From the IMG/VR virus record IMGVR_UViG_3300042399_002267: a stretch of 64,000 bases of DNA; one strand, 5' to 3'. The stretch comes from a virus. A program made the position numbers and the translations under genes. The notes beneath the pieces are model-generated. The model was given only the letters and a program-made list of their open reading frames with translations, did not search any database and was not told where the DNA came from. Every line of letters starts with the position of its first letter. Within the stretch, counting starts at the first letter, position 1. Positions 18,150-44,119 of this stretch are shown in pieces.

Positions 18150-18593
18150 CTATCTAAGTGGAATTCTATTTTTCCAACCATTTCCATCATCTACATTTTT
18201 CTGATATGTTGCTTCAAATGTAAAGGAATCTACGTCTCCAGCCATTGAAGGACTAGATGCTAAATTGCCTGGATCTATATACGCTGGACCTGGAACATTA
18301 TCTGGACCATGTAAAAGCCCTTCGATATTTTGTCCATCAGCTTCTCCACCCAAATCAAAATATTCTTTAGGAATTTTATTTGGTTTTTTGGTCTGTCTCC
18401 ACTCATCACCCTCTTTAAATTCATCTTCCAACTCGTCATATTCGACAAGATAAATATTTGGGTTTTTAGTGACAGATTGTTCTACATAATATTGGGCTAC
18501 TTTTTCAAAAATTAAATCAGAAGACTTGAAATTACCCTTACTATCTAGGATGTAGGCAATCCTTAATGTTTTATGGAGAATATTGAGATCCAT
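18150..18593 (-). CDS. Hypothetical head cargo protein (MDLN leader)
   Basis: Start reassigned to ATG 18593 because MDLN...LD..G...D...KVAQ aligns in register with the N-terminus of 43028..44119. Confidence 0.6.
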   Translation of the reverse strand: MDLNILHKTLRIAYILDSKGNFKSSDLIFEKVAQYYVEQSVTKNPNIYLVEYDELEDEFKEGDEWRQTKKPNKIPKEYFDLGGEADGQNIEGLLHGPDNVPGPAYIDPGNLASSPSMAGDVDSFTFEATYQKNVDDGNGWKNRIPLR

Positions 18594-18615
18594 AATCTTT
18601 GTGTTACTTAATTTT

Positions 18616-19737
18616 TCACAAATTTCCTGCAAATTCTTTTTTTACAACTTGTAATGCATTTTCAATAGTAGTGTCCATATCAAAATATTTATAATTGCCT
18701 AATCTTCCACCAATTAATAAATTTGGACAATTGACAGATGCAAAATTTCTATACTTTTCGTATTTTTCATTATTGATTTCATCATTTATTGGATAGTATG
18801 GATCTTCATTAGGAATGTTTTTATCAAATGTTTTTGAATACTCATAAGTAATTACTTTTTCATCTGATTTACTATTGTAAAAATAATTATGTTGAATGAT
18901 TCTCGTAAAATGAAAATCCTCAGATGGATATGTCATCAATGCCGTGCCTTGAATGTCAATCTTTGTATTGTAACTACTATGTTTGAGTGTTCGGTATTCT
19001 AAATCTCCAAACATGTAATTAAAATATTGATCAATAGGTCCTGTGTAAATTACTTTTTCAGCCAAAGAGTTTAAAAAATCTCTATTTACAATGTAATCAC
19101 ATTCTAACCAAACAACAATGCCTGATAATAGTTTTTCAAAAATTGAAGTGTAACCATGAATCGGAATACCTTCGTAAACATGATCATCAGAATAATATCG
19201 ATCATTTAAAGAAAATCTTAATGGTATTCGTTTAGCAATTGATGCTGGTAATAATTTTGGCTCTCTGCCCCATTGTTTTTTGGTGTATCCGTAGAAAAAC
19301 ATTTCGTACAAAGTTCTACCCATGGTGCTAAGACAATATTCTTCGAAATTTTGTGGATTTTCAAATAAAATTTTATCTGAATTAATTCTTTCTTTTGCTT
19401 GAAGTGGAGTGACAACATCATTCCAAACATGATGAATAGTAGATAAATTTATTGGCAAAGAATAGATTTTATTATTTACAAAAGCTTTATTTCTTAGAGT
19501 GAAATTATTAAATTCTGCAAATTTATTTATATAATCCCAAACATATTTTTTTGAAGTATGAAAAATATGTGGACCATATTTGTGTATATGATAATCTTCA
19601 AATGGTTCAGAATAACAATTTCCACCAATATGATTTCTTTTATCAACTACTAATACTTTTTTACCTAATTTATTAGCTTCATAAGCAAAAATGGAGCCGA
19701 ATAATCCGGCTCCAACAATAAGATAATCATATTTCAT
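18616..19737 (-). CDS. glf: UDP-galactopyranose mutase
   Basis: YDYLIVGAGLFG, RNHIGGNCY, HKYGPHIFHT, YTKKQWG, LEYRTL, YYPIN and GRLGNYKYFDMD. Confidence 0.92.
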   Translation of the reverse strand: MKYDYLIVGAGLFGSIFAYEANKLGKKVLVVDKRNHIGGNCYSEPFEDYHIHKYGPHIFHTSKKYVWDYINKFAEFNNFTLRNKAFVNNKIYSLPINLSTIHHVWNDVVTPLQAKERINSDKILFENPQNFEEYCLSTMGRTLYEMFFYGYTKKQWGREPKLLPASIAKRIPLRFSLNDRYYSDDHVYEGIPIHGYTSIFEKLLSGIVVWLECDYIVNRDFLNSLAEKVIYTGPIDQYFNYMFGDLEYRTLKHSSYNTKIDIQGTALMTYPSEDFHFTRIIQHNYFYNSKSDEKVITYEYSKTFDKNIPNEDPYYPINDEINNEKYEKYRNFASVNCPNLLIGGRLGNYKYFDMDTTIENALQVVKKEFAGNL

Positions 19738-19743
19738 ATGATT

Positions 19744-19772
19744 ATTTTACATATTAACTTGGGTTTGGTGAA
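19744..19772 (-). promoter_or_regulatory. sigma70-type promoter for a leaderless glf transcript
   Basis: TTCACC-17-TAAAAT-6 nt-ATG(19737); no SD. Confidence 0.5.
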
Positions 19773-20794
19773 AAGTGCCCATATAGTCCAATCCCATCAT
19801 AAATTTCTTCAACACCCTTATCTTCTCCACCCATGTCATTATAATCATAATAATTTCCAGGAAAAGACTTGCCATGCTGATTGAAAATACTTATTTCTTT
19901 AGGATTCATTTGAATTTTTTTACCCATCTCTTGCATTGGAACAACATTAGCTTTTGTATCTGGATATGGATTTCTTAGCATGGTCTCTTCATTGTATCCC
20001 GATGTGTCTTGATAAGATCTGTTAGCTTGATTACCTTCATTTAAGTATTCTTCAAGACCTTCGAAACCTGCTAAACCATCTAAAACTTTATATTGTCCAT
20101 CTGGAAAAGAATGAAATTGATATTCATCAAATTGATTATTTGGCTCACCTTCTGGCTTTACAGTAAACCTATTACGTCTCTTTACAGGATAGTCATAATC
20201 TTGAGGATCATGAACAAAACCATATTCTTTTGCAGTTCTGTTTGGATTGTTAGAAGAGATTACATCATGTCGTCTTTGAGGTTTTATTTGATCAGGAACT
20301 TTATCTTCGTATTCGTGAGCTCTTTTTTTGCTGTCATCAAAATGCCTTCTCTCAGCTAAACTTTCTTCCATTGTTCTTAAGTGTTCAGGTTTAGCATGAA
20401 AGTTTTCTTTGATATATGCTGGGCTATTTTTGATTAAACTTGATGCATGGTCTTCCAAAGATTTTTTGTAATTGTGAAGTTGCATTCTTAATTTTAATTT
20501 TAGTCTTTCAGTGGAAGACAATTCGTAATTAAGATCACCATCGGTATATGTGTGTTGAACAGAAAGTTGTTTCTCAATATTTTCATCATTTACATTATAT
20601 TGATCTAAATAAATATGGGTTTTTGAAAGAATTTTTTCAAAACTGTCGTCTTCATCAACATAAATATTAAGCTCAGAACCACCACGATTGGTGCCACCCC
20701 TTCCAAAAGGGCTACGACCAGGAGAGAAAGGTGATCCATTACCACCACCACCTACGCCACCAAATTGTGCGGTTTTGATATTATTTGAAGACAT
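19754..20794 (-). CDS. Hypothetical head-associated protein
   Basis: MSSNNIKTAQ followed by a Gly-rich linker; IEKQL and MEESL repeats. ATG 20794 is preferred over 20809. Confidence 0.55.
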   Translation of the reverse strand: MSSNNIKTAQFGGVGGGGNGSPFSPGRSPFGRGGTNRGGSELNIYVDEDDSFEKILSKTHIYLDQYNVNDENIEKQLSVQHTYTDGDLNYELSSTERLKLKLRMQLHNYKKSLEDHASSLIKNSPAYIKENFHAKPEHLRTMEESLAERRHFDDSKKRAHEYEDKVPDQIKPQRRHDVISSNNPNRTAKEYGFVHDPQDYDYPVKRRNRFTVKPEGEPNNQFDEYQFHSFPDGQYKVLDGLAGFEGLEEYLNEGNQANRSYQDTSGYNEETMLRNPYPDTKANVVPMQEMGKKIQMNPKEISIFNQHGKSFPGNYYDYNDMGGEDKGVEEIYDGIGLYGHFSPNPS

Positions 20795-20815
20795 AATGTT
20801 TTTTTCCATAAAAAT

Positions 20816-22939
20816 TTATCTAAACCTTCCACCTAAATTCATCAATCTTGCATTAGGAAGTCTTATAATTATTTTTGATGTTAAACATTCATAAGATACA
20901 GCAGCTACAGCATCGCAAATGTCATCTTTGTATCCTGACAAAGACTCGATGTAATATCTTTTGCCTTTCCATTTCTTTTGTAAAAATTGAAATTGGATTT
21001 TAGCTTCTTGCACTTCATTAAGTGGTTGTCTTTCACCACGCATATCAAGATAACTACCACCTGAAATATCATACATGTCAATTCTTTCTTCTCTAATTAA
21101 TTGACTTAATTCAGTGTAAATATCTTCTTTGTATTGTTTATTAAAATGTTTTTCAACAATATTTATTCCAGCAGTTTTCAATCTTATAATTGAAGATTGT
21201 GAATTCCATTGATCAACACTAACTTGTTTAAATCTAAATCTTTTATGAAGATCAATGACATAATCTTCAACTTCTCTAGTGTCAATTGGTTGATTTTTGG
21301 ACATTGGATTCCAAAAGTGAATGTGATCAATAACTACTCGCTTAAGTGGTCTATTATCAGGACCTACAGTTCCATACATAGGCTCTGTATGAGCAACACA
21401 CAATGCATAATAATCTGATGTTCTAGCAGGATCTAAATGACAATAATATTCAAACATATTGTCAGCATATTCTTTTCTTTTGACCATACTCATGCTACTG
21501 AACATAGAATTAATCAAATCAGCCATAAACATAGGATCTTGAGAAGATGCACCAAATTCAGCCCCATATTGCATTTGAAATTCTGATGGATTTTTCTTTT
21601 TTTCGTTATCTAAAAATTCTTTCCCAATATTCGGATTTGCTAACCATGTTGGCAATCTCATTATCAAAGTCGTAGGATCTTCAACTCTGTTTTCATGCAA
21701 GTCGTGCAATAACCCAATAGGTCCTTTGGGGTTTGAAAGCATCATCATCTTTCCGTCTTTTCCAAAGGTTGCAAGAGATGGCTTCAAATCATCATATAAT
21801 GCGTAATCTAATCCTGAATCGGGATTATCACCTGCCATAGCAGCAATTTCGTCCATGATTATGCACCAGCAAGTTAGACCAACAAGACCTGATGCACTTG
21901 AAGAACCACATTTTAAAGTTAAAGAACCAGAAAATGGATTTAACCCTTGAGCAGTACGGCGTTCATTTTCCTTAATATCATGGTCTGTAAGGAATCTCAT
22001 TTCAAGTTCAGTGTCTTTGCCAATAAATGGATTGAAATATGGCGAGGCTAGTACTGTTTGTTTGATTTTTGAGAAGATAGCATTCTTTGCTTGTTCTTCA
22101 TTTTTAGCAACATTCAATAAAACAATTTGATCAAATTCCATTAAACCATATCTGGCTTGTGGATGACCCATAGAAATCAATCTGTACAGTTCATAAAGTG
22201 CAATAGCTGAGACTAAGAATGATTTTCCACTACGTCTTCCAAGTACCAGTACAAGTTCTTGAAATTTGTATCTATTTGTACATTTCTCGTATATTTGATG
22301 TCTTAGTTTGGAATCTATTTCATCAGAAAACAAAAGATCTTTTTCTGATTGAAAACCATCAATAACAGGTCTATCTGATAATTTATCTACAAGTCTGATT
22401 GCATCAAAGTTTGTAGCTTCTTCTTTTGCATCTTCATATCTTTTTATTCTGACATCATCATCTAAATTAACGCATTCAAGACATGGAGAGTTATCAACTG
22501 TAAAAAGTGGTTTTACTATTTTACCAAGTTTCTTTTTTCTTAAAGTATCTTCCTCATTGTCCTTGATATGTTTCCAAACGCACCCTTCGCATCCATTTCT
22601 TTCTTCTAAAGGAACATCTTGAATTTCTAAATTTTCATTTCCTTCTTGCCCCATATAAAAACACTTGAGAATCAATCTTTGCCAAGGATGTGGCTTCAGA
22701 TTACAAAAATAAGGGTGTTCTATAAATGTTATGATGTCTACGATTTGATCAGGGTTAAATCTTGTCTTCTCTGGTTTTTTTGGAGGGGATATATCAGTTC
22801 TGGCACTTGGCAAAATGATATCGTCAAACTCAGATGCATAGCCAGTGTCTTTGAAGAATTGAGAAACTTCATTAGCTTGCTGCATAAGTTGACTTTTGAG
22901 GTCATGTTGCGCTAATTTCTGCGGATTTGGTTTTCTCAT
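20816..22939 (-). CDS. terL: Terminase large subunit
   Basis: Walker A LGRRSGKS, Walker B IIMDE, coupling motif LSNP, RNase-H-like HLDPA, DQWNS and KDDICDA. Confidence 0.9.
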   Translation of the reverse strand: MRKPNPQKLAQHDLKSQLMQQANEVSQFFKDTGYASEFDDIILPSARTDISPPKKPEKTRFNPDQIVDIITFIEHPYFCNLKPHPWQRLILKCFYMGQEGNENLEIQDVPLEERNGCEGCVWKHIKDNEEDTLRKKKLGKIVKPLFTVDNSPCLECVNLDDDVRIKRYEDAKEEATNFDAIRLVDKLSDRPVIDGFQSEKDLLFSDEIDSKLRHQIYEKCTNRYKFQELVLVLGRRSGKSFLVSAIALYELYRLISMGHPQARYGLMEFDQIVLLNVAKNEEQAKNAIFSKIKQTVLASPYFNPFIGKDTELEMRFLTDHDIKENERRTAQGLNPFSGSLTLKCGSSSASGLVGLTCWCIIMDEIAAMAGDNPDSGLDYALYDDLKPSLATFGKDGKMMMLSNPKGPIGLLHDLHENRVEDPTTLIMRLPTWLANPNIGKEFLDNEKKKNPSEFQMQYGAEFGASSQDPMFMADLINSMFSSMSMVKRKEYADNMFEYYCHLDPARTSDYYALCVAHTEPMYGTVGPDNRPLKRVVIDHIHFWNPMSKNQPIDTREVEDYVIDLHKRFRFKQVSVDQWNSQSSIIRLKTAGINIVEKHFNKQYKEDIYTELSQLIREERIDMYDISGGSYLDMRGERQPLNEVQEAKIQFQFLQKKWKGKRYYIESLSGYKDDICDAVAAVSYECLTSKIIIRLPNARLMNLGGRFR

Positions 22940-23628: not shown

Positions 23629-23693
23629 AATGGCTTTATACAAAGCAGAACAAGCCACTACTAGAGCGGCTTGTGCATTTTTTAGGATGAATA

Positions 23694-24407: not shown

Positions 24408-24516
24408 AGTGACTTCTCCCCTTTTAAATAAAAATAACCCTAGACAAGAATGTTGTATGTCAAGGGTTTTTGTGGAACATATCAATATAATACAAAGAAT
24501 TATAAAATATATTCCA

Positions 24517-24542: not shown

Positions 24543-24555
24543 TAATATCAGTATT

Positions 24556-31087: not shown

Positions 31088-31759
31088 TTATTTTTTGTTC
31101 AGTGAATCGTTCTCATCCTTTTTGTATTGAGTGTACACTTCATTAGCTTTTTTACGAATTCTAGTAAGAGCATTATCAACACATTTGGGAGGAACATTTA
31201 ATGAATTTGAAATTTCTTTGTAAGATGAATTCATTCCATATTCATTGAAAATTTCAGCTTCTAAAGGAGTTAGTTTATCAATTAGTTTCTTGGAAGTTAA
31301 ATCATATTCTTCTCTTCCAATAATATCAAGAACTAAATCGCACTCAGGAGATTCATCATATGGATTTTTCTTTTCAGGAATAAAATCAGCCAAAGTTTGG
31401 AGATTTCCATCGTCACCTAAAATAATAGGTGCATCTAAAGAAATAGAATCATTCAACACTGAATTTTTCATTCTTTTAGCACTTGCGATTGCTGTTGCTA
31501 AATGACGTTTACAGACTAGATTGACACAAAAGTTTTTAAAAGTTGTATCTTTGGTTGGATCATAGGAATTAACAGCTTTGTAAACTCCCAACCGCAATTC
31601 TTGCATTACGTCTTCTCTATCAGCACCTACTATAAAGTAATGGTTGCAGATTTTTTTAAGATCAGGCTCAACCATTTTCAAGAGGTAATTAAAAGATTTA
31701 CTTTCTCCTCTTTTAGCTTTTCTAACGATGTCTACTATTCTTGGGTCTTCGGTTGCCAT
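31088..31759 (-). CDS. sigH: SigH (Spo0H)-like RNA polymerase sigma factor
   Basis: GADREDVMQE, F.NF..LVCKRHLATAI.SA.R.K..LN.SISLD.PI and SYKEIS..LN...K.VDNAL.RIRKK match Bacillota SigH. Confidence 0.75.
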   Translation of the reverse strand: MATEDPRIVDIVRKAKRGESKSFNYLLKMVEPDLKKICNHYFIVGADREDVMQELRLGVYKAVNSYDPTKDTTFKNFCVNLVCKRHLATAIASAKRMKNSVLNDSISLDAPIILGDDGNLQTLADFIPEKKNPYDESPECDLVLDIIGREEYDLTSKKLIDKLTPLEAEIFNEYGMNSSYKEISNSLNVPPKCVDNALTRIRKKANEVYTQYKKDENDSLNKK

Positions 31760-31796: not shown

Positions 31797-32855
31797 TTAC
31801 GCAGAATTTTTTTTCGCGTACCAGTCGATTACTTTGAGAATTCCGGTAATTGCTACGATATCCTCAGAAACAGTTTGCCTTATATTACAAGATATGTTAT
31901 ACAACTGTTCCGTTAACTCAACTAAATAAGTACTAGGAACAGATTTGCTTATATTTTCAATCTCAACATCCTTGTCTACCTTCTTCATTCTTACCAATCT
32001 ATACTTAAATGCTTCCATTAAGATATGGGATGAATCTAATATCAAAGAACCCAAGCTTCTCCCCTCTTGATGTGCAGTAGAAATAATTCTAAATGATTCG
32101 CTTCGATCACAATTAAGAATTGAATAAACTAAATCAAATGATAGTTGTTTTGGAGACATGACAAGAAGTTCTCTAATATTTTCTTCAGATATTTCTTGCA
32201 AAGATGCCTGATCTAAAATAGAAAGAGCTGTTCTAGCACTTCCATCTGCTTGAACGGCAATCAAATTTAGTGCCTCAATATCATATTTGAAACTTTCATT
32301 TGTGCAAACACCAATCATAATGTCTCTTAGATTTACATTTGAAAGCTTTCTCATTGGAAATATTTGAGACCTAGTAACGATTGCTCTTAGTATTTTGCTT
32401 GGTTCAGTTGTGCAAAAGAAAAATTTCACAAAAGGTGGAGGTTCTTCTGTAATCTTAATTAATGAAGTTTGAGCTTGAGTGGTAAGCATGTGACATTCAT
32501 CTAAAATGAAAATCTTATACTTGTACATCGGAGACAACCGCGCAAGTTGAATAATATTTTCCCGTATATGATCAACACCATTATTTACAGCACAATTAAT
32601 TTCATATACATCAGGATGAGAATCATTTGCTACAGATTTACAAGAATCACATTCACAACTCTCATTGCCTGAAGTGCAATTCATCTTCTTTGCTGCGACA
32701 CGAGCTAGAGTTGTCTTTCCTGTACCTGGAGGACCTGAAAGAATATAAGAATGAGTAGTTTTACCCAATGCAATTTGTTGCTCTAGTATTTCAGAAGATT
32801 TACTTCCCAAAATCTCATTAAAGTTTTGCGGTCGATATTTATTATATAAACTCAT
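31797..32855 (-). CDS. dnaX: DNA polymerase III gamma/tau subunit
   Basis: LYNKYRPQNF, GPPGTGKTT, C..C..C zinc module, ILDECHML, EEPP and DGSARTALSILDQ. Confidence 0.9.
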   Translation of the reverse strand: MSLYNKYRPQNFNEILGSKSSEILEQQIALGKTTHSYILSGPPGTGKTTLARVAAKKMNCTSGNESCECDSCKSVANDSHPDVYEINCAVNNGVDHIRENIIQLARLSPMYKYKIFILDECHMLTTQAQTSLIKITEEPPPFVKFFFCTTEPSKILRAIVTRSQIFPMRKLSNVNLRDIMIGVCTNESFKYDIEALNLIAVQADGSARTALSILDQASLQEISEENIRELLVMSPKQLSFDLVYSILNCDRSESFRIISTAHQEGRSLGSLILDSSHILMEAFKYRLVRMKKVDKDVEIENISKSVPSTYLVELTEQLYNISCNIRQTVSEDIVAITGILKVIDWYAKKNSA

Positions 32856-34646: not shown

Positions 34647-34648
34647 AT

Positions 34649-37081
34649 TTATGACCCGCAGGCTTCACAATCTGGATTATCTAACCTACATTGAGGAGCA
34701 TCTACCTCTTCTTCCATAGGCTTGATTTCTATTTCAATCTTCTTTTCAGTTTGTTGAATGGAAGAAACATCAATTCCCAATCCCTTTAGAGCTTGAGCCT
34801 TTGGTTTAGTTCTAAGATAATACATACCTGTCTTCAAACCAATTTTCCATCCATAAAAATGAGCAGATGAAAGCTTGGATACAGTGGGTTCAGCCATAAA
34901 CATATTCAATGACTGAGACTGATCAATAAAATAATTACGATCCCTAGCCATTTCAAGAATTGACTTGCCTTTAATCTCCCAAACAGTCTTATATACTTCT
35001 TTGATATCTGCTGGAATTTCATCAATATTTTGAACAGAGCCATTGTCGATAATAAGCTTCATTCTGATATTGTCACTCCATATCCCAAGATTGACAAGAT
35101 CTTCAACCAAATGCTTATTGATAATTGCATATTCACCGGAAAGTGTATTTCTCTTGTAAATGTTTGCAGTGAATGGTTCAAAACATTCATTGTTCCCAAG
35201 AATTTGAGCAGTAGAAGCAGTAGGCATAGGAGCAACTAACAAAGAGTTTCTCAAACCGTGTGTCTTAATTTCTTCTTTAAGTGCTGAAAAATTCCACATA
35301 CCTGAAAGATCATTCTCAGTTAATCCCCAAAGATCATATTGCAATAACCCTTGAGACGCTGGGGATCCTTCGAATGAAGAATAAGACCCGTATTTCTTTG
35401 CTAAATCATTTGAAGCTGTCAATGCTGCAAAATAAATAGTCTCAAAAATATCTTTGTTTAATTTACGGGATTCATCTGAATCAAAAGCAATACCCATAAT
35501 AGCAAAAGTGTCTGCTAAACCTTGAACACCTAATCCGATAGGACGATGTTTGAAGTTAGAATTTGATGTCTCTTCTGTTGGATAATAGTTGATATCAATT
35601 ACTTGATTGAGATTGACAGTAGCCTGATAAGTAACATCAAACAAAGCTCTAAAGTCAAACTTGCGAAGCTTTTTATCCTTCTCTCTTACTTTACCTGATG
35701 GAATTAAGACATATTTAGGCAAAGCAATAGAGGCAAGATTACATACAGCAGTTTCATTCTTGTCAGTGTATTCAATAATTTCAGTACAGAGATTTGAAGA
35801 CTTGATTGTTCCAAGATTCTTTTGATTGCTCTTATAATTACATGCATCTTTGTAAAGCATATAAGGAGTGCCAGTTTCAATCTGTGAATCAAGAATCTTT
35901 TCCCACAATTCACGAGCCTTGACAGTCTTTAAACCCTTACCTTCAGCTTCATATTGTTCATACAAAACTGTGAAAGCTTTATTATCTGGTGAATCGTAAG
36001 CATCGATCAAACCTGGCACTTGTTCTGGTGAAAATAATGTCCAGTTGCCATTCTGCTCAACTCTTTGCATAAATAAGTCAGGTATCCACAAAGCTAAGAA
36101 CAGATCTCTTGCTCTCATTTCTTCCTTACCTTGATTCTTGCGAAGATCTAAGAAGTCATAAACATCTCCATGCCAAGGCTCAAGATAAACAGCAATGGAT
36201 CCTTTACGCTTGCCACCACCCTGATCAACATATCTTGCTGTCTCATTAAAGACACGAAGCATAGGGATAATTCCATTAGAATGTCCGTTGGTGCCCTTGA
36301 TATAACTACCTTTAGCGCGGATCTTATGAATGTTGATGCCAATACCGCCTGCTGACTGAGAAATTTTGGCACAGTCAGATAATGTCTTATAAATACCTGG
36401 AATAGAATCATCATCGACATCTAGTAAAAAACAAGATGACAATTGAGGTCGATTTGTACCAGCATTGAAAAGAGTTGGAGTGGCATGGGTAAAAAGACCT
36501 TGTGAAAGCATATCGTAAGTCTTTTGAACCATTTCTAAATTGTCACGCCAGATTCCAACTGCAACTCTCATGTATAGATGCTGAGGAGTTTCCGCTGCTT
36601 TACCATCAACTTTAAGCAAATAAGATTTTTTCAATGTCATGAATCCAAAGAAATCAAAATTGAAATCACGATCATGCACAATCATTGCATCAAGTTCATT
36701 TGCATGGTTTTGAATTACTGAATATACTTCATCAGATATCATTCCAGACTTTTCGCCAGTTTTAGGATTGATATATTCATAGAGCTTTGTGGCAACTCTG
36801 GAGAAATCTTTTTCTACATCCTTGTACAGAGCAGTAATAGCAATACGAGCAGCCAACTTACCATAATCAGGATGGGTAGTAATCATAGAAGCAGCAGTCT
36901 CAGCACTTAATTGATCAAGCTCTGTGCTGCTTACACCATCATAAAGACCAGATACAACCTTAGTGCTGACAAGATCTGGATCAACCATATCGTGCAAACT
37001 ATAAGTTAGCTTCTTAATCCTGGAGCCAATTTTTTCAAGCTTAAGTGGCTCTTTTGTTCCATTGCGCTTTAAAATATCCAT
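34649..37081 (-). CDS. nrdA: Class Ia ribonucleotide reductase alpha subunit with an N-terminal ATP cone
   Basis: IKRNG ATP cone, HATPTLFNAG, QLSSCFL, SSNLCTEI, AVCNL, APMPTAST, YYLR and C-terminal CxxC. Confidence 0.95.
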   Translation of the reverse strand: MDILKRNGTKEPLKLEKIGSRIKKLTYSLHDMVDPDLVSTKVVSGLYDGVSSTELDQLSAETAASMITTHPDYGKLAARIAITALYKDVEKDFSRVATKLYEYINPKTGEKSGMISDEVYSVIQNHANELDAMIVHDRDFNFDFFGFMTLKKSYLLKVDGKAAETPQHLYMRVAVGIWRDNLEMVQKTYDMLSQGLFTHATPTLFNAGTNRPQLSSCFLLDVDDDSIPGIYKTLSDCAKISQSAGGIGINIHKIRAKGSYIKGTNGHSNGIIPMLRVFNETARYVDQGGGKRKGSIAVYLEPWHGDVYDFLDLRKNQGKEEMRARDLFLALWIPDLFMQRVEQNGNWTLFSPEQVPGLIDAYDSPDNKAFTVLYEQYEAEGKGLKTVKARELWEKILDSQIETGTPYMLYKDACNYKSNQKNLGTIKSSNLCTEIIEYTDKNETAVCNLASIALPKYVLIPSGKVREKDKKLRKFDFRALFDVTYQATVNLNQVIDINYYPTEETSNSNFKHRPIGLGVQGLADTFAIMGIAFDSDESRKLNKDIFETIYFAALTASNDLAKKYGSYSSFEGSPASQGLLQYDLWGLTENDLSGMWNFSALKEEIKTHGLRNSLLVAPMPTASTAQILGNNECFEPFTANIYKRNTLSGEYAIINKHLVEDLVNLGIWSDNIRMKLIIDNGSVQNIDEIPADIKEVYKTVWEIKGKSILEMARDRNYFIDQSQSLNMFMAEPTVSKLSSAHFYGWKIGLKTGMYYLRTKPKAQALKGLGIDVSSIQQTEKKIEIEIKPMEEEVDAPQCRLDNPDCEACGS

Positions 37082-37083
37082 AC

Positions 37084-38040
37084 TTAGAAATCCTCGTCAA
37101 ATGAGATTTGTTCTTTAACTTCACCAACACCACTTTTGACATAGTCAGCCACTCTCTTCTCAAAGAAATTGGTTTTATTAGCCATAGCAATATTTTGCAT
37201 AAAGTCAAACGGGTTCTCAGCATTGTATATCTTGCCAACACCAAGATCCATCAGTAGTCTATCAGAAACATATTCAAGATATTGCTTCATAAGATTTGAA
37301 TTCATGCCAATCAAGCTCACTGGCAATGCTTCTGTGATAAATTCTTTTTCAATAACAAGAGCTGAATCGATAATCTCAATTAATCGCTCTTTTGATAATT
37401 TATTTTCAACATGATTATTGTATAGATGAACAGCAAAATCTGTATGCAAACCTTCATCACGGGAAATTAATTCATTGGAAAAAGATAAACCTGGCATTAA
37501 CCCACGCTTCTTTAGCCAGAAAATTGAACAGAAAGATCCAGAGAAGAAAATTCCCTCAACAGCAGCAAAGGCAACAAGGCGCTCGACAAAAGATTCAGAA
37601 CCAATCCACTTAAGTGCCCATTCTGCCTTCTTCTGAACAGCTGGAACGGTATCAATTGCATTGAATAAATAATTCTGTTCTTCTTTATCTTTGATATATG
37701 TATCAATCAAAAGAGAATAGGTTTCTGAGTGGATGTTTTCCATCATAATCTGGAAACCATAGAAAAATTTAGCCTCTGTGTACTGCACTTCAGAAACGAA
37801 ATTTTCAGCTAAGTTTTCATTTACAATGCCATCAGATGCAGCAAAGAATGCTAAGACATGCTTGACAAAATGTTTCTCACCTTCATTCAATTTATCCCAA
37901 TCTGTCAAGTCTTGGGATAAATCAATCTCCTCAGCTGTCCAGAAAACTTGTTGAGCTTTCTTGTAATAATCCCAAATATCATGATGCTGTAACGGAAACA
38001 AAACAAACCTATTTTTATTCTCTTCTAGTATCTTTTCCAT
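37084..38040 (-). CDS. nrdB: Class Ia ribonucleotide reductase beta subunit
   Basis: [52 protein letters not shown] and NFFE. Start is ATG 38040 or TTG 38052. Confidence 0.95.
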
Positions 38041-38057
38041 AATTTTTGACAATAAAA

Positions 38058-38084
38058 AATATCTGAAGCAATTTATCAGATATT
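38058..38084 (-). terminator. Stem-loop with a U-tract upstream of nrdB
   Basis: AATATCTGA-9 nt-TCAGATATT followed by tttt on the minus strand. Confidence 0.5.
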
Positions 38085-38131
38085 CTTATATACCTTCCTG
38101 TTATTTATCGTGCGGGTTATTTTTCTAATAG

Positions 38132-38563
38132 TCAAACATCTTCCAATGCTTCTGGTCTTAATTTGCGTAATATTTCTACCACTTCAAAAAGATTCTTTTG
38201 AGCAATGTTTCGTTTCAATAGATAGTTTACCATATCATCGACAACTTCGCTAAAATCTTTTTCAGTGACATTGCTTATATATTTTGCACATTTTATAAAT
38301 GCTGCATCAAATATATATTGAGATTGCAAATTATTAGTTTCAAAAAACGTATTTTTCACTTTATTAAATGAAATATTAAATTCACCTTTGTACGCCATGG
38401 CAACACTTCTCAATGTAGTCCACGGAGTGTAAGATCTGTACTTTATATTCTGATCACCAGAAGACAATTCCTGAGTAAATGTTAAATCACTTGGTAGTTT
38501 TTCACCAATCAAAAGCTTCCTGACTAAATCTTTTTTGAGTTTTTCTGAGTCGTTTGAATTCAT
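38132..38563 (-). CDS. Hypothetical protein
   Basis: Open frame; ATG 38563 is preferred and overlaps the deaminase 3' end. Confidence 0.5.
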   Translation of the reverse strand: MNSNDSEKLKKDLVRKLLIGEKLPSDLTFTQELSSGDQNIKYRSYTPWTTLRSVAMAYKGEFNISFNKVKNTFFETNNLQSQYIFDAAFIKCAKYISNVTEKDFSEVVDDMVNYLLKRNIAQKNLFEVVEILRKLRPEALEDV

Positions 38564-38996
38564 AGTAATTATCACCACTGCAGCGTAAAATTAGATTCTC
38601 ATTTAGCAAATCTGTATCAGTCCACCAAACATGTTCTATCTTAGCCATTTGCAAGGCTTTTTCACAATTGGGGCAAGGTTTAGCCAATCTAAATTTGCCA
38701 TGTCTATTAATTCTGATACTTAATATAATAAGATCATCCTCTATACTTGATAAATCTAATTTGGATATAACATCACATTCTGCATGAATATATGGATAGT
38801 TTTTCCATTTTTCAATGTTCCACATTCGTCCTATTCTCAAGGCACTTTTAGAACCAGATGTTTCGTTATTCTTGCCCCACACTAATACTTTATTTTTTCT
38901 TATGGCAAAAGCATAATGAAAACAAGGTTTTGATTGATCAGATTTCCAATCATCAAATGCTATTTTCAATGCACGTCTTAATGCCAAACTATTCAT
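38502..38996 (-). CDS. Cytidine/deoxycytidylate deaminase-family Zn protein
   Basis: IHAECDVI and AKPCPNC zinc-binding motifs. Confidence 0.8.
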   Translation of the reverse strand: MNSLALRRALKIAFDDWKSDQSKPCFHYAFAIRKNKVLVWGKNNETSGSKSALRIGRMWNIEKWKNYPYIHAECDVISKLDLSSIEDDLIILSIRINRHGKFRLAKPCPNCEKALQMAKIEHVWWTDTDLLNENLILRCSGDNYYEFKRLRKTQKRFSQEAFDW

Positions 38997-39379
38997 TACA
39001 ATGCAAATTTTATGTCAATTGCGAAGATTCTGGTAGATATACCCTTTGCCTTTTTCCCCGCAATTTCTGCACTATATTCCGATTGTCTGCAAATAAGAAC
39101 AGAGCCATTTGTTAACGATTCTACTTCTCTTGACGCTAATCTAAATGCTGACATGACTGAAGAGAGAGCAGTTGGTCCCACAGACAAAACTCTTACATAC
39201 TCATGTTCTTTTAAAACATGCAAAATGCTTCTTGATAAACCTATAGGATCAGTTGGTCTTCTGGAATCATCAGGATCATTAGGATCTCCACCTCGTGCTT
39301 TGAGAATCCTAGGATCTGTAATTTTTGGTTTCTTTTCATTGTTTGCAATTTTGTTTACTGGTTCTTCAATTATATCCAT
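38996..39379 (-). CDS. spoVS: Stage V sporulation protein S-like (SpoVS, Alba-like fold)
   Basis: ILKA..., P.GLSRSI..VLKE, V.V.SVGPTALSSVMSAF.LA, LIC and .IAG......I align with SpoVS. Confidence 0.65.
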   Translation of the reverse strand: MDIIEEPVNKIANNEKKPKITDPRILKARGGDPNDPDDSRRPTDPIGLSRSILHVLKEHEYVRVLSVGPTALSSVMSAFRLASREVESLTNGSVLICRQSEYSAEIAGKKAKGISTRIFAIDIKFAL

Positions 39380-39383
39380 TTTT

Positions 39384-40343
39384 TTATCCTTCTAGCCCAA
39401 CTAAAGCCATCTTATTCTTTACATTTTCAAGTGCTTCTTGAAATTCAGTTAATGTACAATTGTAAACTTTAGGATCGTACTTAATATCCTTTGTACCGCT
39501 TAATGCTGAGTTGATAATTTTAAATTCAATTTCGTTCATGCTGTAACGCATTAGATTTTGGATTTTATTTTTGTCTTCTACATGATCATAATAACAATTT
39601 TCATCGTCATCTTCTTCAGACATGTATACACTCATTGCACGAGGTGAAATTGTTTGGTAATTTGGATAGAGTTCATTGAATTTTTGAAATAACATAGAAG
39701 AGTGTTTTGATAAAAAATGTTTCTTTAATGCTAAAAGAGTAATAATTTTTTGACAAACTTCGCAACCATTTTCTGTTTTATTATCACAATCTGGAAGACA
39801 TTCAAATGTTCTTGGCATTTTGTGAGACTTGCAAAATGGACAATGAGAAATATTATCTAAATGAATATTAATATTTTCTAAATGAAGCCATAGAATTTCA
39901 CTATGATGATTTAAGATGTGTGTGGAAAGTGGATTTACCCATTTTTCACAAATTGGACATTTTTGTGATGGATTTCTTTTGCCAGCATTGTCAGCTTTAA
40001 CTAAATTGATATAATTATGTTGTAATGCGCCAATAAAATAATTCTTAAATTCACCAGAACCATCATAGCGAGACTTTTTTCTTGCTCCTCTTGGTTTCCA
40101 GTTTGACAAAACATTGCAGAAAATTCTAATATAGTCTTGAGCAAAATCTTCTTGAGAATCATATAAATAATGATATTGATTCCACCACTCTTGCATATGT
40201 AGCATAGGTGGATAAAGTTTACAAATATCTTTATAGTGTTTGTCTATTAGAATCTTATTTCCAGAAACTAATGATTTTTGATAACGTAAAATTGCTTGCT
40301 CTAAATTTTCTTGAACTTTTAGGTGCTTTATATCATTTAACAC
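39384..40343 (-). CDS. Sigma-70-like protein with an internal C2H2-type zinc-finger insert
   Basis: Region-2-like SQEDFAQDY..W.P..FKNYF.GAL.HNYINLVK; then CPIC..H...H, CPFC, C..C and CEVC..H...H; then MNEIEFKII. Confidence 0.45.
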   Translation of the reverse strand: MLNDIKHLKVQENLEQAILRYQKSLVSGNKILIDKHYKDICKLYPPMLHMQEWWNQYHYLYDSQEDFAQDYIRIFCNVLSNWKPRGARKKSRYDGSGEFKNYFIGALQHNYINLVKADNAGKRNPSQKCPICEKWVNPLSTHILNHHSEILWLHLENINIHLDNISHCPFCKSHKMPRTFECLPDCDNKTENGCEVCQKIITLLALKKHFLSKHSSMLFQKFNELYPNYQTISPRAMSVYMSEEDDDENCYYDHVEDKNKIQNLMRYSMNEIEFKIINSALSGTKDIKYDPKVYNCTLTEFQEALENVKNKMALVGLEG

Positions 40344-40370
40344 AAAAGAACCCTCCCCGATAATAAAAAT

Positions 40371-40399
40371 ATTATAGTGCTGGAGGGTTGATTTGTAAA
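40371..40399 (-). promoter_or_regulatory. Near-consensus sigma70 promoter embedded in an SD-sequestering hairpin
   Basis: TTTACA-17-TATAAT, overlapping the inverted repeat AACCCTCC/GGAGGGTT (40349-40389). Confidence 0.7.
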
Positions 40400-42181
40400 C
40401 TACTTTGAATGCTTGATGTCTTCTATAATCAACACTAAGCTATTTTTACCAGTAAATGTGTCAATTTCAAGAGTGTAAACAAGATCTACTACATCATCAA
40501 CCTTAAAACTATCAATTAAATAACCTCTGCGCCAAGCATTTGCAGATATCCAAGATTTTCCATCTGTAAATTTAATTTTTAAATGCTTGCCTTGTGATAA
40601 TGGTTTTAATTCTGATATTTTAATACCCTTGGTGAAAAATAAGGGATTTGGATTTTCAGCACCGAAAGGAGCCAATCTTAATAAGTGATTGTATGTTTTA
40701 TAATTTAGATCACCAAACATGAGTTTTGAATCTACTTCAATCTCTTTTATATTTGTTGGATCACCAATAACATTTGATGCATATTCATTCAATGCATCTC
40801 TCATTGCTGGAATATTATTAATAGCAAGTTCAAATCCAGCTGCAAAAGCATGTCCACCACAAACAGTTGAACCATCTGCTCTTTTCTTAAACAATGCCCA
40901 TGCTTTTTCAGATTTCAATGCATTCAAGATGTTAAAGTTTCGAGTGGAACGACAAGAACCTTTTGCATATCCATCAGTTTTAAAAGAACACACTAAAGTA
41001 GGTTTATTATAAACTTCTGCTATTTTCCCAGCAATCAAACCAATCAATCCTGGATGCCAATCATCTGCACCAAGTATTAGTATATGTTCCTTTTCTAAAT
41101 CAAAGTTTTTTTCAACGTATGCTACAGCTTGTGCAATATTTTCTTCTTGTTGTTTTTGTCTTTTAGTGTTTGCATTATTCAATGTATTTGCTAAAGACTT
41201 TGCAATAAAATCATCTTCAGCCAATAACAAAGATAAAGCTGTTCCAGAATCAGCCAATCTTCCAATAGCATTAATTCTTGGACCTATTTGAAATCCAATA
41301 CTTGTTGTGGTGACTTCCTTGACTCCAGCAACTCGTAAAAGTTCTTGTATTCCAGGTTTTGTACTTCTGCTTAAAATTTTACAACCATAGTCTACAATTA
41401 TGCGATTTTCATCTAACATTGGAGCAACGTCAGCTACTGTACCCAAAGCAGCAAATTCAATAAGATCATCTATCAAACTCATAATATCCATCTTGCGAGT
41501 TTTAGCTAATCCGAGCATTAATTTAAATGCAATACCACACCCTGCAAGATAATCAAAAGGATATCTCTTAAAATCTTCAGTTTTATGAGACTTGAAATGT
41601 TCTCCAGGATAGTTAGGGTCATCTCTGTTAGGATTCACAACCCCAATACAATTTGGTATTTTTCCATCATCAGAAGGATGGTGGTGATCTGTGACTATCA
41701 AATCTAAACCACATTTTTTAGCATATTCAGCTGTTTCAAATGCAACAATTCCACAGTCCACAGACATGAGCAATTTAGCTTCACGAGAAATGGCTTCATC
41801 TACAGAATGAACTTTGATATCATATCCATCTTCCATTCTGTGGGGAACTTTATATTCAAGATTGGCTCCCATCTTTTTAAGTGCTGTGACAACAATAGCA
41901 GTGGAAGTGATTCCATCAACATCGTAATCTCCCCATACAAAAATCTTTTCCTGATTGTCAATAGCATAATTAATTCTGTCTACAACAGGTTTGAAATCTG
42001 GCAACAATGACGGGTTGTGCAAATGTTTGATTTCTGTTTTAAGAAAATCATTAGCATCTTCAAGATTTGTGATTCCTCTTACTGCTAAAACTTTGGCAAT
42101 TGTTGCTGGCATTTCAAGATCAAATGCTAACTCGTCTACAAGACCATTATCAGCTTTTTTGAGTTTCCAAATTGTTTCCAT
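40400..42181 (-). CDS. recJ: Single-stranded DNA exonuclease RecJ
   Basis: GDYDVDGITS, VDCG, TDHH, ALGTVADV, GPRINAIGRL, WHPGLIGL, KGSCRS, GGHAFAAG and LAPFG..NP.P. Confidence 0.95.
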   Translation of the reverse strand: METIWKLKKADNGLVDELAFDLEMPATIAKVLAVRGITNLEDANDFLKTEIKHLHNPSLLPDFKPVVDRINYAIDNQEKIFVWGDYDVDGITSTAIVVTALKKMGANLEYKVPHRMEDGYDIKVHSVDEAISREAKLLMSVDCGIVAFETAEYAKKCGLDLIVTDHHHPSDDGKIPNCIGVVNPNRDDPNYPGEHFKSHKTEDFKRYPFDYLAGCGIAFKLMLGLAKTRKMDIMSLIDDLIEFAALGTVADVAPMLDENRIIVDYGCKILSRSTKPGIQELLRVAGVKEVTTTSIGFQIGPRINAIGRLADSGTALSLLLAEDDFIAKSLANTLNNANTKRQKQQEENIAQAVAYVEKNFDLEKEHILILGADDWHPGLIGLIAGKIAEVYNKPTLVCSFKTDGYAKGSCRSTRNFNILNALKSEKAWALFKKRADGSTVCGGHAFAAGFELAINNIPAMRDALNEYASNVIGDPTNIKEIEVDSKLMFGDLNYKTYNHLLRLAPFGAENPNPLFFTKGIKISELKPLSQGKHLKIKFTDGKSWISANAWRRGYLIDSFKVDDVVDLVYTLEIDTFTGKNSLVLIIEDIKHSK

Positions 42182-42936
42182 TATATTTTTACCAATAAGT
42201 CCTGTTGACCAGAAGATATCATTTCCTTTATAGACTCATCTAAAAAAGAAATATCATACTTGCTAGCAAAATCATCAGGGTCCATACCTTTAGGCAATAA
42301 AACCCTATGAGCTTTTAAAGAGTATTCTTTAATTTTAGATAGTATTTTTTCTGATGCAATTTTACCAGCATCATCAGAATCCATTATCACTATAATATTA
42401 TCGCAATATCTTGCTGCTAAAGCAATTTGATAATCTGATATAGAAGTGCCACACAATGCACATGTATTCTGATACCCATTATCGTAAAAACTATACACAT
42501 CAAAGTATCCCTCTACTAAGATGATATAGTTTCTTATAATTGCTTCTTTTTTAGCATTATTTAGAAAAAATAAATTTCTTGTTTTTTGATAAGGCTCATT
42601 TATCCATTTGCCTTTATTCCATTTATTAATTCTGTCTTGACATTTTGCCGGTTCATGACTATATGAATCCCAAAATGATTGAACAGTCATTTCTGCTGCT
42701 TTTGGAATTTGGCGACCAGCTAGAGCAATAATTTTTCCATCAACATCACAAATGGGAACTATTAATCTTCCCCTCAATAATGGAAAATGATATCTAGAAT
42801 ATGATGGACAAAATCCCACTAAATTATCATCTACTATTCTTTTGGATAAATTTCTAGTAGCATAATATTCTTGGGCAATGTTACTATCAGATAAATTACG
42901 AGTAAATTGATTATAATATGCCTTGCGATCTTCCAT
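42181..42936 (-). CDS. dnaG: DNA primase catalytic core (RNAP plus TOPRIM), lacking the zinc-binding domain
   Basis: GRLIVPI.D..G.IIA.AGR, KWIN, LVEGYFDV, LCGTS and MDSDDAG, KGMDPDD. Confidence 0.85.
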   Translation of the reverse strand: MEDRKAYYNQFTRNLSDSNIAQEYYATRNLSKRIVDDNLVGFCPSYSRYHFPLLRGRLIVPICDVDGKIIALAGRQIPKAAEMTVQSFWDSYSHEPAKCQDRINKWNKGKWINEPYQKTRNLFFLNNAKKEAIIRNYIILVEGYFDVYSFYDNGYQNTCALCGTSISDYQIALAARYCDNIIVIMDSDDAGKIASEKILSKIKEYSLKAHRVLLPKGMDPDDFASKYDISFLDESIKEMISSGQQDLLVKI

Positions 42937-42942
42937 CTTGTG

Positions 42943-42971
42943 ATTATCTCACATTAAAGGAACTTTAGCAA
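42943..42971 (-). promoter_or_regulatory. sigma70-type promoter for a leaderless primase transcript
   Basis: TTGCTA-17-GATAAT-6 nt-ATG(42936). Confidence 0.55.
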
Positions 42972-42982
42972 CTAACGTATAA
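42957..42982 (+). promoter_or_regulatory. Putative late promoter AAGGA-N16-TATAA
   Basis: Same spacing as the other late sites; upstream of the 43028 gene and overlapping the divergent primase promoter. Confidence 0.45.
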
Positions 42983-43027
42983 AACTTAAACCAGAGTAAG
43001 AATCTTTTCTTTATTAGGAATTTTGTC

Positions 43028-44119
43028 ATGGATTTAAATGAATATATTGATTTTATAATTGTTGCTGAAGAACTTGACAAGTTGGGAAGATATGCTGAAG
43101 CTGACAATCTTGTAAGATTAGCTCAATTTCCAAATATGAACCCACAAGGCTTTGGCGGTTTTGGTAATATGGGGGCTGGAAATGGCAATTTATTTACTCC
43201 ACAAATGCAAGGAGCTGCTATAGGTGGAGCTCTTGGTAATGCTGCCTTTAAGAGTCCTGTTGGAACTGCAATTGGAACTTTATTGGGAAGTGAAATTGGC
43301 AGAAAACAAGGGAATGAAATTCAGCAAAGAAATATCCCATCTGAACAAAAAATTCAAAAATTAAAAGAAGAATTAATCAAATTACAGGCACAACCAGAAC
43401 CAAGAAATTATGTCAAAATGCAAGAATTGCAAAGACAAATCACAACTGAAGAAAAAATTCTCAAAGACACTCAAGCTCTAAGAGCACAAAATCAACCTCA
43501 GCCAGCAACACAAACTGCCAATCAAACAGGATTACCTGCATCAGCATCATTAGACCAATTAAAAGCATACAACGCAGCAAGAGATGCTAAATCGTTTGAT
43601 GAATTGCAAAAATTAGTAGCGAATTTCACTTTAGCAGAACAAGCTTTAGCATTTAGATTCTGGAATTTAAAATCTCAACAAGCAGCAACTCAAACTCCAG
43701 GGCAACCAGCTGGACAATTGCAAGCTACACAAATGCCACCTGCTGTAAATAATATTCTTATGAGTATGTTGTATGACTCAGCAATGACAACTCCACAAGC
43801 TATCTGGACAAAAATAAGTACTTCTGAACAAATTCCAGAAGGATTGAAAAGAGCAGCATTTGATGAATTCTTAAAACTTAGAAGTAATCAGATTTACGGA
43901 GCTCAACAAGCACAAGCACCTGTAACAGCACCACAGTTTACACCAGCAGAAGATGCAGAAATTAACAAATTAGTATCTCTTGCTTTCGGGCAAGAATCAG
44001 GACGAAAATTTAATTTTATTAAAAATAAATTCTTAAGAGATCAAATTACAAAACCAATCTACGATGAAGCAATTAAGAGACTAAGAGAGAAAGTTACATT
44101 ATTGCAAAGTATGAGATAA
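43028..44119 (+). CDS. Gln/Ala-rich putative head cargo protein (MDLN leader, glycine-zipper-like segment)
   Basis: MDLN..VAEELDKLGRYAEADNLVRLAQ leader and GAAIGGALG..VGTAIGTLLG segment. Confidence 0.6.
   Translation: MDLNEYIDFIIVAEELDKLGRYAEADNLVRLAQFPNMNPQGFGGFGNMGAGNGNLFTPQMQGAAIGGALGNAAFKSPVGTAIGTLLGSEIGRKQGNEIQQRNIPSEQKIQKLKEELIKLQAQPEPRNYVKMQELQRQITTEEKILKDTQALRAQNQPQPATQTANQTGLPASASLDQLKAYNAARDAKSFDELQKLVANFTLAEQALAFRFWNLKSQQAATQTPGQPAGQLQATQMPPAVNNILMSMLYDSAMTTPQAIWTKISTSEQIPEGLKRAAFDEFLKLRSNQIYGAQQAQAPVTAPQFTPAEDAEINKLVSLAFGQESGRKFNFIKNKFLRDQITKPIYDEAIKRLREKVTLLQSMR

Follow-up and report, generated by a model that had tools for sequence, protein, structure and literature searches.

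A TPR-like helical hairpin shared by unrelated proteins of uncultured giant phages, and its possible role as a head-loading tag

Two genes, A and B, in the 64,000-nt stretch of phage DNA analysed here (the window) encode proteins that open with the same short element. This element is an orphan single-TPR-like hairpin common to many unrelated phage proteins, and it constitutes an undescribed interaction module. It has a recurrent motif, is modular, has a predicted hairpin fold, is biased in its position and carries a characteristic junction motif. A clade of ~350-kb phages appears to fuse this hairpin to dozens of unrelated proteins, mostly right at the start of the chain. We propose an interchangeable docking tag whose favoured role, put forward tentatively as somewhat short of probable, is loading of its cargo into the assembling head, with possible cleavage at the junction. 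The two genes and their parts are as follows.

18150-18593, (-) strand: gene A, 147 aa from the ATG at 18593
18492..18593, (-) strand: gene A hairpin tag (aa 1-34, MDLN...EKVAQ); profile match 56 bits, E 4e-16
18150..18491, (-) strand: gene A cargo part, predicted disordered (pLDDT about 40-60)
43028-44119, (+) strand: gene B, 363 aa
43028..43126, (+) strand: gene B hairpin tag (aa 1-33, MDLN...VRLAQ); E 2.8e-7 with the gene-A-only profile, 47.7 bits with profile A3
43127..44119, (+) strand: gene B cargo part; Gly-rich linker, glycine-zipper-like segment (aa 62-98), then Q-rich helical regions in the AlphaFold model

The coordinates and sequences of both leaders given in the preliminary description were borne out on re-examination. 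The leader was said to comprise 33 residues in both genes; this holds for gene B, whereas the gene A leader, counted through AQ, is 34 residues long, and aligning the two takes one gap near the end. Taken alone, the A/B pair is of marginal significance by sequence comparison. Its Smith-Waterman score is 37 (shuffle p = 6.5e-4), a value reached by 22 of all 4851 pairs of N-termini in the genome, most of them pairs of Tad2-like paralogues; and BLASTP of the gene A protein against the gene B protein did not report the N-terminal match. The decisive evidence comes from an HMM built solely from the leaders of gene-A homologues. Searched against the six-frame genome, this profile recovered the gene B N-terminus at E 2.8e-7 together with two further N-termini, both from genes in the same 87-kb record and outside the window. 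Profile comparison thus confirms the shared N-terminal element as a genuine sequence family. The remainders of proteins A and B show no relation in BLASTP and Pfam/PHROG comparisons, as had been claimed. The two additional genes are:

G000:71001-72020, (+) strand: third tagged gene, 339 aa; N-terminus matched by the gene-A-only HMM
G000:76935-77300, (+) strand: fourth tagged gene, 121 aa; N-terminus matched by the gene-A-only HMM

The tag spans ~33-38 residues and has the consensus h-x-x-[IL]-A-x-x-L-D-x-x-G-x-Y-x-x-[AS]-[DN]-x-h...[KR]-[LIV]-[AS]. The record, which is 23%-complete, contains four profile matches, and five related records contain 19, 15, 8, 4 and 2; related near-complete jumbo-phage records carry from 8 to at least 22 copies each. 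One 358-kb relative, G001, yielded at least 22 strong matches, against none in its reversed or shuffled proteome. Among 1.84 billion proteins the profile matched 1306, some of which are cellular TPR proteins, and 182 N-terminal carriers retrieved from the database fall into 73 unrelated cargo clusters. Synteny with G001 further reveals equivalent slots that hold tagged genes with unrelated cargos. The element described earlier as modular is thus found in four genes here, in at least 22 in the relative, and on the 73 cargo clusters.

The cargos are mostly small, acidic or zinc-ribbon orphan proteins that evolve fast and occupy variable slots. Pfam and PHROGs returned almost nothing for them and no structural-protein annotation, with a Pfam domain of any kind in 5 of 94 (FHA, AP2, zinc ribbons); an ESM Atlas query with a 1008-aa C-terminal carrier gave no usable lead. 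The genes that encode them do not cluster: gene B has replication genes around it, and one further copy neighbours gyrase-like genes. GenBank phages gave no DNA or protein match to the region, to protein A, to protein B, or to two leaders; the tag clade comprises uncultured ~350-kb phages, with contigs from lake samples and no cultured carrier found among GenBank phages.

Turning to the placement of the tag, it starts at most 12 residues from the initiating Met in 199 of 261 database matches (about 76%), and N-terminal placement accounts for 4/4 copies in this record and 19/22 in G001. The tag also occurs at the extreme C-termini of proteins of about 1000 aa and internally, and although most carriers are single-copy, a minority bear it 2-3 times, placed in tandem or at the two termini. 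The term "N-terminal leader" therefore describes the overwhelming majority, but with C-terminal and internal copies in existence the tag is not strictly a leader. Its end had been given as [KR][VL]AQ; the basic-hydrophobic-small triplet [KR]-[LIV]-[AS] is kept, whereas the Q is not (Q 34%, M 33%). Helix 2 is followed by the pattern [KR][ILVMFYT][AS] in 88% of the N-terminal copies (168 of 190), compared with 3 of 30 C-terminal copies and 6% of background windows, and the triplet is kept at a fixed helical phase. Being frequent in N-terminal and rare in C-terminal copies, it tracks the downstream cargo rather than the fold. In gene A the KVAQ junction falls within predicted helix 2. One match contained TAG, which raised the idea of read-through; its G001 counterpart is a 193-aa protein that merely ends right after the hairpin, and the recoding idea was dropped. 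Another short candidate, M(W)YRIAK[GD]G, was set aside as having two carriers only and forming no family.

AlphaFold predicts helices at residues 3-18 and 22-39 of the gene A tag (pLDDT 86-94), with like boundaries, 3-18 and 22-33, for the gene B tag at low confidence (pLDDT about 50). These models suggest an amphipathic antiparallel helix-turn-helix hairpin. The leader profile found no family among Pfam and PDB sequences, giving sub-threshold MIT, TPR_17 and PPR hints only; likewise, none of 20 leaders passes the Pfam TPR gathering thresholds (best TPR_17, E 0.049, one member), and PF13424 had no match on four phage records, versus matches in 14/14 control genomes. Inspection led to the rejection of a classic DNA-binding helix-turn-helix, given a glycine spacing that does not fit and the lack of any Pfam HTH match, and of a Sec/Tat signal, given the lack of a hydrophobic core.

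Gene A is a core gene of the clade and sits in the head module, inside the operon that runs from terminase to portal, as seen in synteny with G001. Comparison of homologous loci indicates that the ATG at 18593 is its true start, because many of them have a stop codon 2-4 codons upstream of the equivalent Met. The gene A cargo matched no Pfam or PHROG family and an ESM Atlas query with gene A gave no usable lead; an alignment of 113 homologues shows a highly conserved C-terminal motif, GPD.VPGPA.IDPGN.ASSPSMA. Gene B is a lone (+) strand gene flanked by primase-like and RecA-like genes. Its cargo has sub-threshold Pfam matches to Gly-zipper_Omp and Rick_17kDa_Anti; 22 close homologues of the gene were found, and a search for the gene B family in IMG/VR found none. 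The features that bear on a possible link of these genes to head assembly are:

2381-3235: MCP; further head-module products at 3265-3942, 3973-5652 and 12400-17191
5782..9966, (-) strand: 1394-aa protein whose N-terminal domain is that of a head-maturation protease (aa 82-241, phrog_18299, E 9e-20)
10091..12391, (-) strand: portal protein (PHROG portal families and Pfam Portal_Mu), at the downstream end of the operon holding gene A
20816..22939, (-) strand: large terminase (phrog_2, phrog_9), at the upstream end of that operon
42958..42982, (+) strand: promoter-like element of the form AGG-N17-TATAA, which precedes gene B by 45 nt

The promoter-like element AGG-N17-TAGAA precedes the protease gene, where the copy is exact, and other head genes. 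The element upstream of gene B differs from it by one base, and genes B and C both have one-mismatch copies. In G001, with at most one mismatch allowed, it lies before 7 of the 11 tagged genes that have their own spacer and before 22 of 189 other genes (p 1.5e-4); the element was derived post hoc from a small set of head genes, in a genome rich in AT, and its late timing is an assumption. A different candidate for a common promoter, TAAGAAGA, was discarded as present only at genes C and D, which are too few.

A lone two-helix hairpin exposes a hydrophobic face and so most likely packs against one common partner. We favour as partner a component of the assembling head, which could be the scaffold or core, an extension of the protease, the portal, or the inner capsid surface. 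Expression of the tagged proteins would coincide with that of the head genes, and the proteins would then be carried into the prohead, where the [KR]-[LIV]-[AS] junction may be a head-protease site that frees the cargo; we infer such a partner, and with it encapsidation, cleavage and delivery into the host. Should the tag be removed, the candidate enzyme, we infer, would be the protease-domain protein at 5782..9966. Several observations run against head loading: the cargo domains carry no structural-protein annotation, the tagged genes are scattered, C-terminal and internal copies occur, the junction lies within helix 2, and hairpins of the TPR type are generic interaction modules whose partner could be anything.

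Possibly, the hairpin instead docks its cargos on a common partner outside the virion, the cargos then being intracellular host-takeover or counter-defence factors; we regard this as a serious contender, albeit on the unlikely side. Candidates are, on the host side, a hub such as RNA polymerase, the ribosome, a chaperone or a defence protein and, on the phage side, a factor such as the phage's own DnaK/DnaJ or a replication factory. The character of the cargos (small, acidic, zinc-ribbon, FHA or AP2, fast-evolving, in variable slots) fits this explanation, as do the scatter of tagged genes among replication genes, the C-terminal and internal copies, and the use of TPR-like hairpins as generic binding modules. 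However, gene A, the sole tagged gene of the core set, has terminase and portal on either side, the head-gene promoter-like element is enriched before tagged genes, and plain docking leaves the N-terminal-specific junction motif unexplained.

The junction motif, along with the strong N-terminal bias, is equally left unexplained if the hairpins bind one another by four-helix or TPR-like stacking, producing homo- or hetero-oligomers or a condensate in which no dedicated receptor takes part. Self-association agrees with the natural proteins that bear the tag 2-3 times, in tandem or at the two termini; true TPR repeats do stack on each other, and a search of these phage genomes found no canonical TPR-array receptor; most carriers, however, have a single copy, and we consider this explanation improbable. 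Finally, the resemblance might reflect no shared function, arising recurrently from generic helical-hairpin or TPR-like composition or by drift from ordinary paralogy. The marginal pairwise score and the cross-matching of the profile to cellular TPR_10/12 arrays point that way. Against this stand the absence of matches in shuffled or reversed proteomes, the exact N-terminal placement of about 76% of 261 matches, the conservation of the junction triplet at a fixed helical phase, and syntenic slots that keep the tag while the cargo changes; this reading is already disfavoured, and we give it very little credence.

If the tag does load the head, it would reveal by what means giant phages bring a large and rapidly changing set of injected proteins into their capsids, would single out about 20 candidate effectors for injection in each genome of a clade that has no cultured member, and would provide a compact, fold-defined packaging handle. 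Even with a partner outside the virion, it represents an undescribed interaction system, probably with one hub partner, that is worth finding.

Among known folds, the closest likeness is to TPR_10 and TPR_12 (PF13374, PF13424), antiparallel two-helix hairpins of about 34-42 residues; the hairpin that AlphaFold predicts for the tag is of similar length, its consensus is similar (..L.N[IL]A..LD..G.Y.EA[DNE]..), and the phage profile cross-matches true TPR_10/12 arrays. In contrast to these families, the phage tag is a single orphan copy with its own N-terminal Met context and a [KR]-[LIV]-[AS] end. Matches that form arrays of 42-residue period are cellular TPR proteins, and as a rule the phage tag does not form tandem arrays of three or more repeats. 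The P22 scaffolding protein ends in a helix-loop-helix coat-binding domain rich in basic residues; this hairpin alone docks a protein inside the procapsid and has been reused to load foreign cargo. The phage tag resembles it as a small helical hairpin, on the predicted fold, and differs in having no sequence similarity, conserved charged residues that are acidic, carriers that are not scaffolds, and a mostly N-terminal location. The heads of phiKZ-like giant phages such as SPN3US load many proteins, and the prohead protease removes N-terminal propeptides, mostly of 111-254 residues, from ejection and head proteins at a cut motif with glutamate at P1 (PMC10052503). Unlike the tag described here, those propeptides do not form a portable module common to many proteins, and their cleavage motif is another one.

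The tag had been likened to the targeting peptide of T4. A capsid targeting sequence (CTS) was reportedly described for the T4 internal proteins IPI, IPII and IPIII by Mullaney and Black in 1996. This sequence of about 10 residues (MKTYQEFIAE) is carried by a variety of internal proteins and closes with the gp21 cleavage rule [LI]-x-E, with packaging and cleavage proven, and Alt has propeptides at both ends (PMC9026906). The parallels with T4 are an N-terminal element that closes on a conserved short motif and heads small proteins with little conservation and no relation to one another within a single phage, interchangeable cargo, the presence of a head maturation protease, and rapid turnover of the tagged genes among relatives. 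The tag is nevertheless not a short peptide of the T4 kind: with putative packaging and cleavage, it is a TPR-like hairpin of ~35 aa (33-38 residues in two helices) with a [KR]-[LIV]-[AS] end in place of the [LI]-x-E rule, no sequence similarity, C-terminal and internal copies, and at least 20 carriers per genome. The fullest version of the proposal is that, across the clade, one portable tag, released by the head protease at [KR]-[LIV]-[AS], brings into the capsid at least 20 small, interchangeable effectors per genome, to be injected together with the DNA. We judge this unlikely; if true, the tag would be a far larger, structurally different counterpart of the T4 CTS and a usable packaging tag.

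The virus record containing the window, a fragment of an uncultured jumbo phage, spans 87,464 bp at 33% G+C (CheckV completeness 23%) and is colinear in gene order with a 358-kb relative, G001. Four carriers of an N-terminal tag lie in this 23%-complete record, the third and fourth just outside the window (G000, the whole record; L078, a sub-stretch with its own numbering):

18150-18593, minus strand: gene A, 147 aa
43028-44119, plus strand: gene B, 363 aa
G000:71001-72020 (L078:5256-6275), plus strand: third tagged gene, 339 aa, N-terminus matched by the gene-A-family HMM
G000:76935-77300 (L078:11190-11555), plus strand: fourth tagged gene, 121 aa, GTG start, N-terminus matched by the gene-A-family HMM

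The starts of genes A and B read exactly as the preliminary description gave them, and gene A does begin at the ATG at 18593, because a stop codon lies 2-4 codons 5' of the equivalent Met in many homologous loci. The 33-aa length claimed for the leader holds for gene B (33 residues up to AQ) but not for gene A (34), so one gap is required near the end.

On its own, the A/B pair would be marginal evidence of a shared leader. The N-terminal match is absent from BLASTP output for the pair; local alignment scores 37 (shuffle p = 6.5e-4), and 22 of 4851 N-terminus pairs in the genome reach this score, nearly all of them Tad2-like paralogues. The N-terminus pairs with the highest scores in the record come from small paralogues in tandem (MTG.EAL...) at G000:81372-82824, outside the window. 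At the level of sequence, the shared leader is settled by homologues. Database relatives number 113 for gene A and 22 for gene B, and both families retain at the N-terminus h-x-x-[IL]-A-x-x-L-D-x-x-G-x-[YF]-x-x-[AS]-D-x-h...[KR]-h-[AS]; LDNLGRYAEAD, as in gene B, is also present in one gene-A relative. An HMM built solely from gene-A-family leaders, searched against a six-frame translation of the record, recovered the first 33 residues of gene B (E 2.8e-7), bearing out the leader claimed for the two genes, and matched two additional N-termini.

In IMG/VR, 77 contigs carry gene A, some of them 316-358 kb long. Two leader profiles were used, A3 (from 20 leaders) and the broader A4 (from 47). Matches to A3 in five related jumbo-phage records were as follows:

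G001, 358 kb, completeness 89%: 19 matches
G002, 316 kb, completeness 88%: 15 matches
G003, 347 kb, completeness 99%: 8 matches
G004, 169 kb, completeness 47%: 4 matches
G005, 122 kb, completeness 34%: 2 matches

Across the whole of G001, A4 identified 22 carriers with strong matches and 3-4 with weaker matches, against zero matches at iE < 0.01 in reversed and shuffled G001 proteomes. Among 1.84 billion representative proteins it gave 1306 matches at E <= 1e-3. When the motif was masked in 182 N-terminal carriers, these fell into 73 unrelated cargo clusters; the sources were metagenomic hypothetical proteins throughout, and GenBank phages yielded zero matches. We take it as shown that the element is a hairpin tag of modular use, joined to many proteins that are otherwise unrelated; a modular tag had been proposed in the preliminary description. 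The biggest cluster (63 members) combines the hairpin with an acidic linker and a CxxC...CxxC zinc ribbon, and only ~5 of 94 cluster representatives matched Pfam at all, through FHA, AP2 or zinc-ribbon domains. In gene B, the tag and a Gly/Asn-rich linker are followed by a glycine-zipper-like segment (aa 62-98; 43211-43321, plus strand) with sub-threshold Pfam matches to Gly-zipper_Omp and Rick_17kDa_Anti, which may insert into a membrane.

AlphaFold2 models of the gene-A family place helices at residues 3-18 and 22-39 (pLDDT 86-94), the remainder being low-confidence or disordered. The gene B model has corresponding helix boundaries (3-18 and 22-33) at a pLDDT of about 50, lower because its alignment is shallow.

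The motif lies within the first 12 residues in 199 of 261 retrieved database matches and at the extreme C-terminus in 29; the description of an N-terminal leader thus captures a bias, with C-terminal and internal copies also present. The hairpin ends proteins of about 900-1010 aa in G001 and G002, with the tail ...ADKFTNILRKYNV followed by a stop, as well as a 193-aa protein adjoining gyrase-like genes, and two internal copies occur in 511-aa proteins. Two or three tandem paralogues carry the C-terminal hairpin behind an acidic linker (G001 74637-80511, sub-stretches L112/L113; G002 37030-42560); this block of about 900-1010-aa proteins is missing from the syntenic gap of the present record.

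The terminal Q of the proposed [KR][VL]AQ ending is not conserved, the residue there being Q (34%), M (33%), then D, Y and others. Conservation instead covers [KR]-[LIV]-[AS], which follows helix 2 in 168 of 190 N-terminal copies against 6% of background windows, with an acidic stretch next (D+E 27%) and a spacing from the conserved D/N that varies by about one helical turn. The triplet is kept in only 3 of 30 C-terminal copies and is absent from at least nine independent C-terminal tails, and therefore tracks downstream cargo rather than the fold. This distribution would fit a processing site and, equally, a conserved helix-to-linker junction; cleavage there strikes us as rather doubtful. Separately, [KR]-T-A-S at about aa 30-42 of the proteins encoded at 3973-5652 and 5782-9966 (both minus strand) is conserved between the record and G001 while its flanks change (MLRTASS/LIKTASS; MVKTASL/MARTASL); it is a candidate site at which head proteins mature. 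M(W)YRIAK[GD]G begins both the protease fusion (9946-9966, minus strand) and a 133-aa protein 5' of the portal (12781-12801, minus strand), and MYRVAKGG is retained on the G001 protease; with two carriers only, it was rejected as a tag family.

The genomic setting is defined by the following features of the window:

2381-3235: major capsid protein
5782-9966: 1394-aa protein with an N-terminal head-maturation-protease domain
10091-12391: portal
20816-22939: large terminase
31088-31759: sigma factor
31797-32855: clamp loader
34649-38052: ribonucleotide reductase, large and small subunits
47259-50510: DNA polymerase

The terminase-to-portal operon contains gene A, the sole tagged gene conserved across the clade. 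Directly 5' of it is a UDP-galactopyranose mutase gene (18616-19737, minus strand; Pfam GLF, E 7e-59) with no counterpart at the equivalent place in G001, and thus an insertion in this record; the head operon also holds a DUF192 (COG1430) protein (17271-17609, minus strand) that is kept in G001. Gene B is a single plus-strand gene with primase-like and RecA-like genes on either side, and in G001 this slot is taken by another protein, of 511 aa, inside which lie two weak hairpin copies. The slot of the fourth tagged gene holds a 465-aa tagged protein of unrelated cargo in G001. Since syntenic slots hold different tagged cargo, the tag is retained as the cargo changes. By comparison with this record, the remaining G001 tagged genes are insertions, or else they belong to a tandem array at 145-152 kb. 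In that array (145518-151650; L116:5518-11650), paralogues beginning MNK[KR]QI[IV]ASLN.IAN.LD... differ in cargo, several being acidic and bearing CxxC...CxxC zinc ribbons.

An exact AGG-N17-TAGAA element, which we assume to be a late promoter, precedes three window genes and the G001 protease gene:

5653-5781: region 5' of the 559-aa gene (3973-5652)
9967-10090: region 5' of the protease gene
14426-14450: region 5' of the 540-aa gene (12803-14425)

The copies before the 559-aa and protease genes have in common the extended form AGGTAAAAAC-N10-TAGAA. In front of gene B, AGG-N17-TATAA is present at -45, and in front of the third tagged gene, AGG-N17-AAGAA at -33. Among G001 genes preceded by a spacer of 35 nt or more, the element, defined after the fact and sought within 100 nt upstream, occurred with at most one mismatch in 7 of 11 tagged and 22 of 189 other genes (one-sided Fisher, p = 1.5e-4), and exactly in 2 of 11 and 2 of 189 (p = 0.016); several element-bearing "other" genes are head-module orthologues. 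An exact copy also lies upstream of a weakly tagged 165-aa G001 protein (208450-208947, minus strand; L119:8450-8947) with two LysM domains (E 3e-19), a peptidoglycan-binding cargo that would be consistent with delivery by the virion or with a part in lysis. A different sequence, TAAGAAGA, has seven copies in the record, of which only two, at L078:5217-5224 and L078:11158-11165 (G000:70962 and 76903), lie within 150 nt 5' of a gene start on their own strand; they precede the third and fourth tagged genes by 39 and 32 nt, respectively.

As to the function of the tag, which as a whole we infer, a lone amphipathic hairpin requires a packing surface, so a common partner onto which the hairpin would dock its cargo is the natural reading. 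That the hairpins instead pack against one another, self-associating, is improbable, and that the copies have no shared function is very improbable. The favoured target would be the head, into which cargo would be loaded. Arguing for it are the location of gene A within the head operon, a promoter-like element that tagged genes share with head genes, the N-terminal bias of the tag, the junction motif specific to copies with downstream cargo, and the T4 precedent. Against it stand the scatter of the tagged genes, the C-terminal and internal copies, and a cargo (zinc ribbons, FHA, AP2, acidic tails) that would also suit intracellular takeover factors. Docking to a non-virion hub is fairly unlikely, and the full reading, in which a docking module brings its cargo into the head, is put forward tentatively, as a real possibility.

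Among known systems, the coat-binding hairpin of the P22 scaffold is near in concept to the phage tag. In fold, the tag is closest to a single TPR_10/12 repeat: the best profile matches include genuine cellular TPR_10/TPR_12 arrays (42-residue period, repeat ..SLNNLAN.LD.QG.Y.EAE..), and the phage element therefore resembles one orphan TPR-type hairpin. By Pfam criteria it is no member, 20 leaders giving sub-threshold hints only and PF13424 having no match in four phage records against matches in all 14 control genomes; a PDB sequence search returned no significant match. As far as Pfam, the PDB, GenBank phages and a literature search show, this particular hairpin is undescribed. In function, the nearest known system would be the T4 capsid targeting sequence, by analogy: 10 residues on diverse, poorly conserved internal proteins, removed by gp21, with Alt bearing a propeptide at each end (PMC9026906); propeptides are also described for giant phages (PMC10052503). 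The phage hairpin differs from the T4 sequence in length, sequence and end motif, and is no member of that family.
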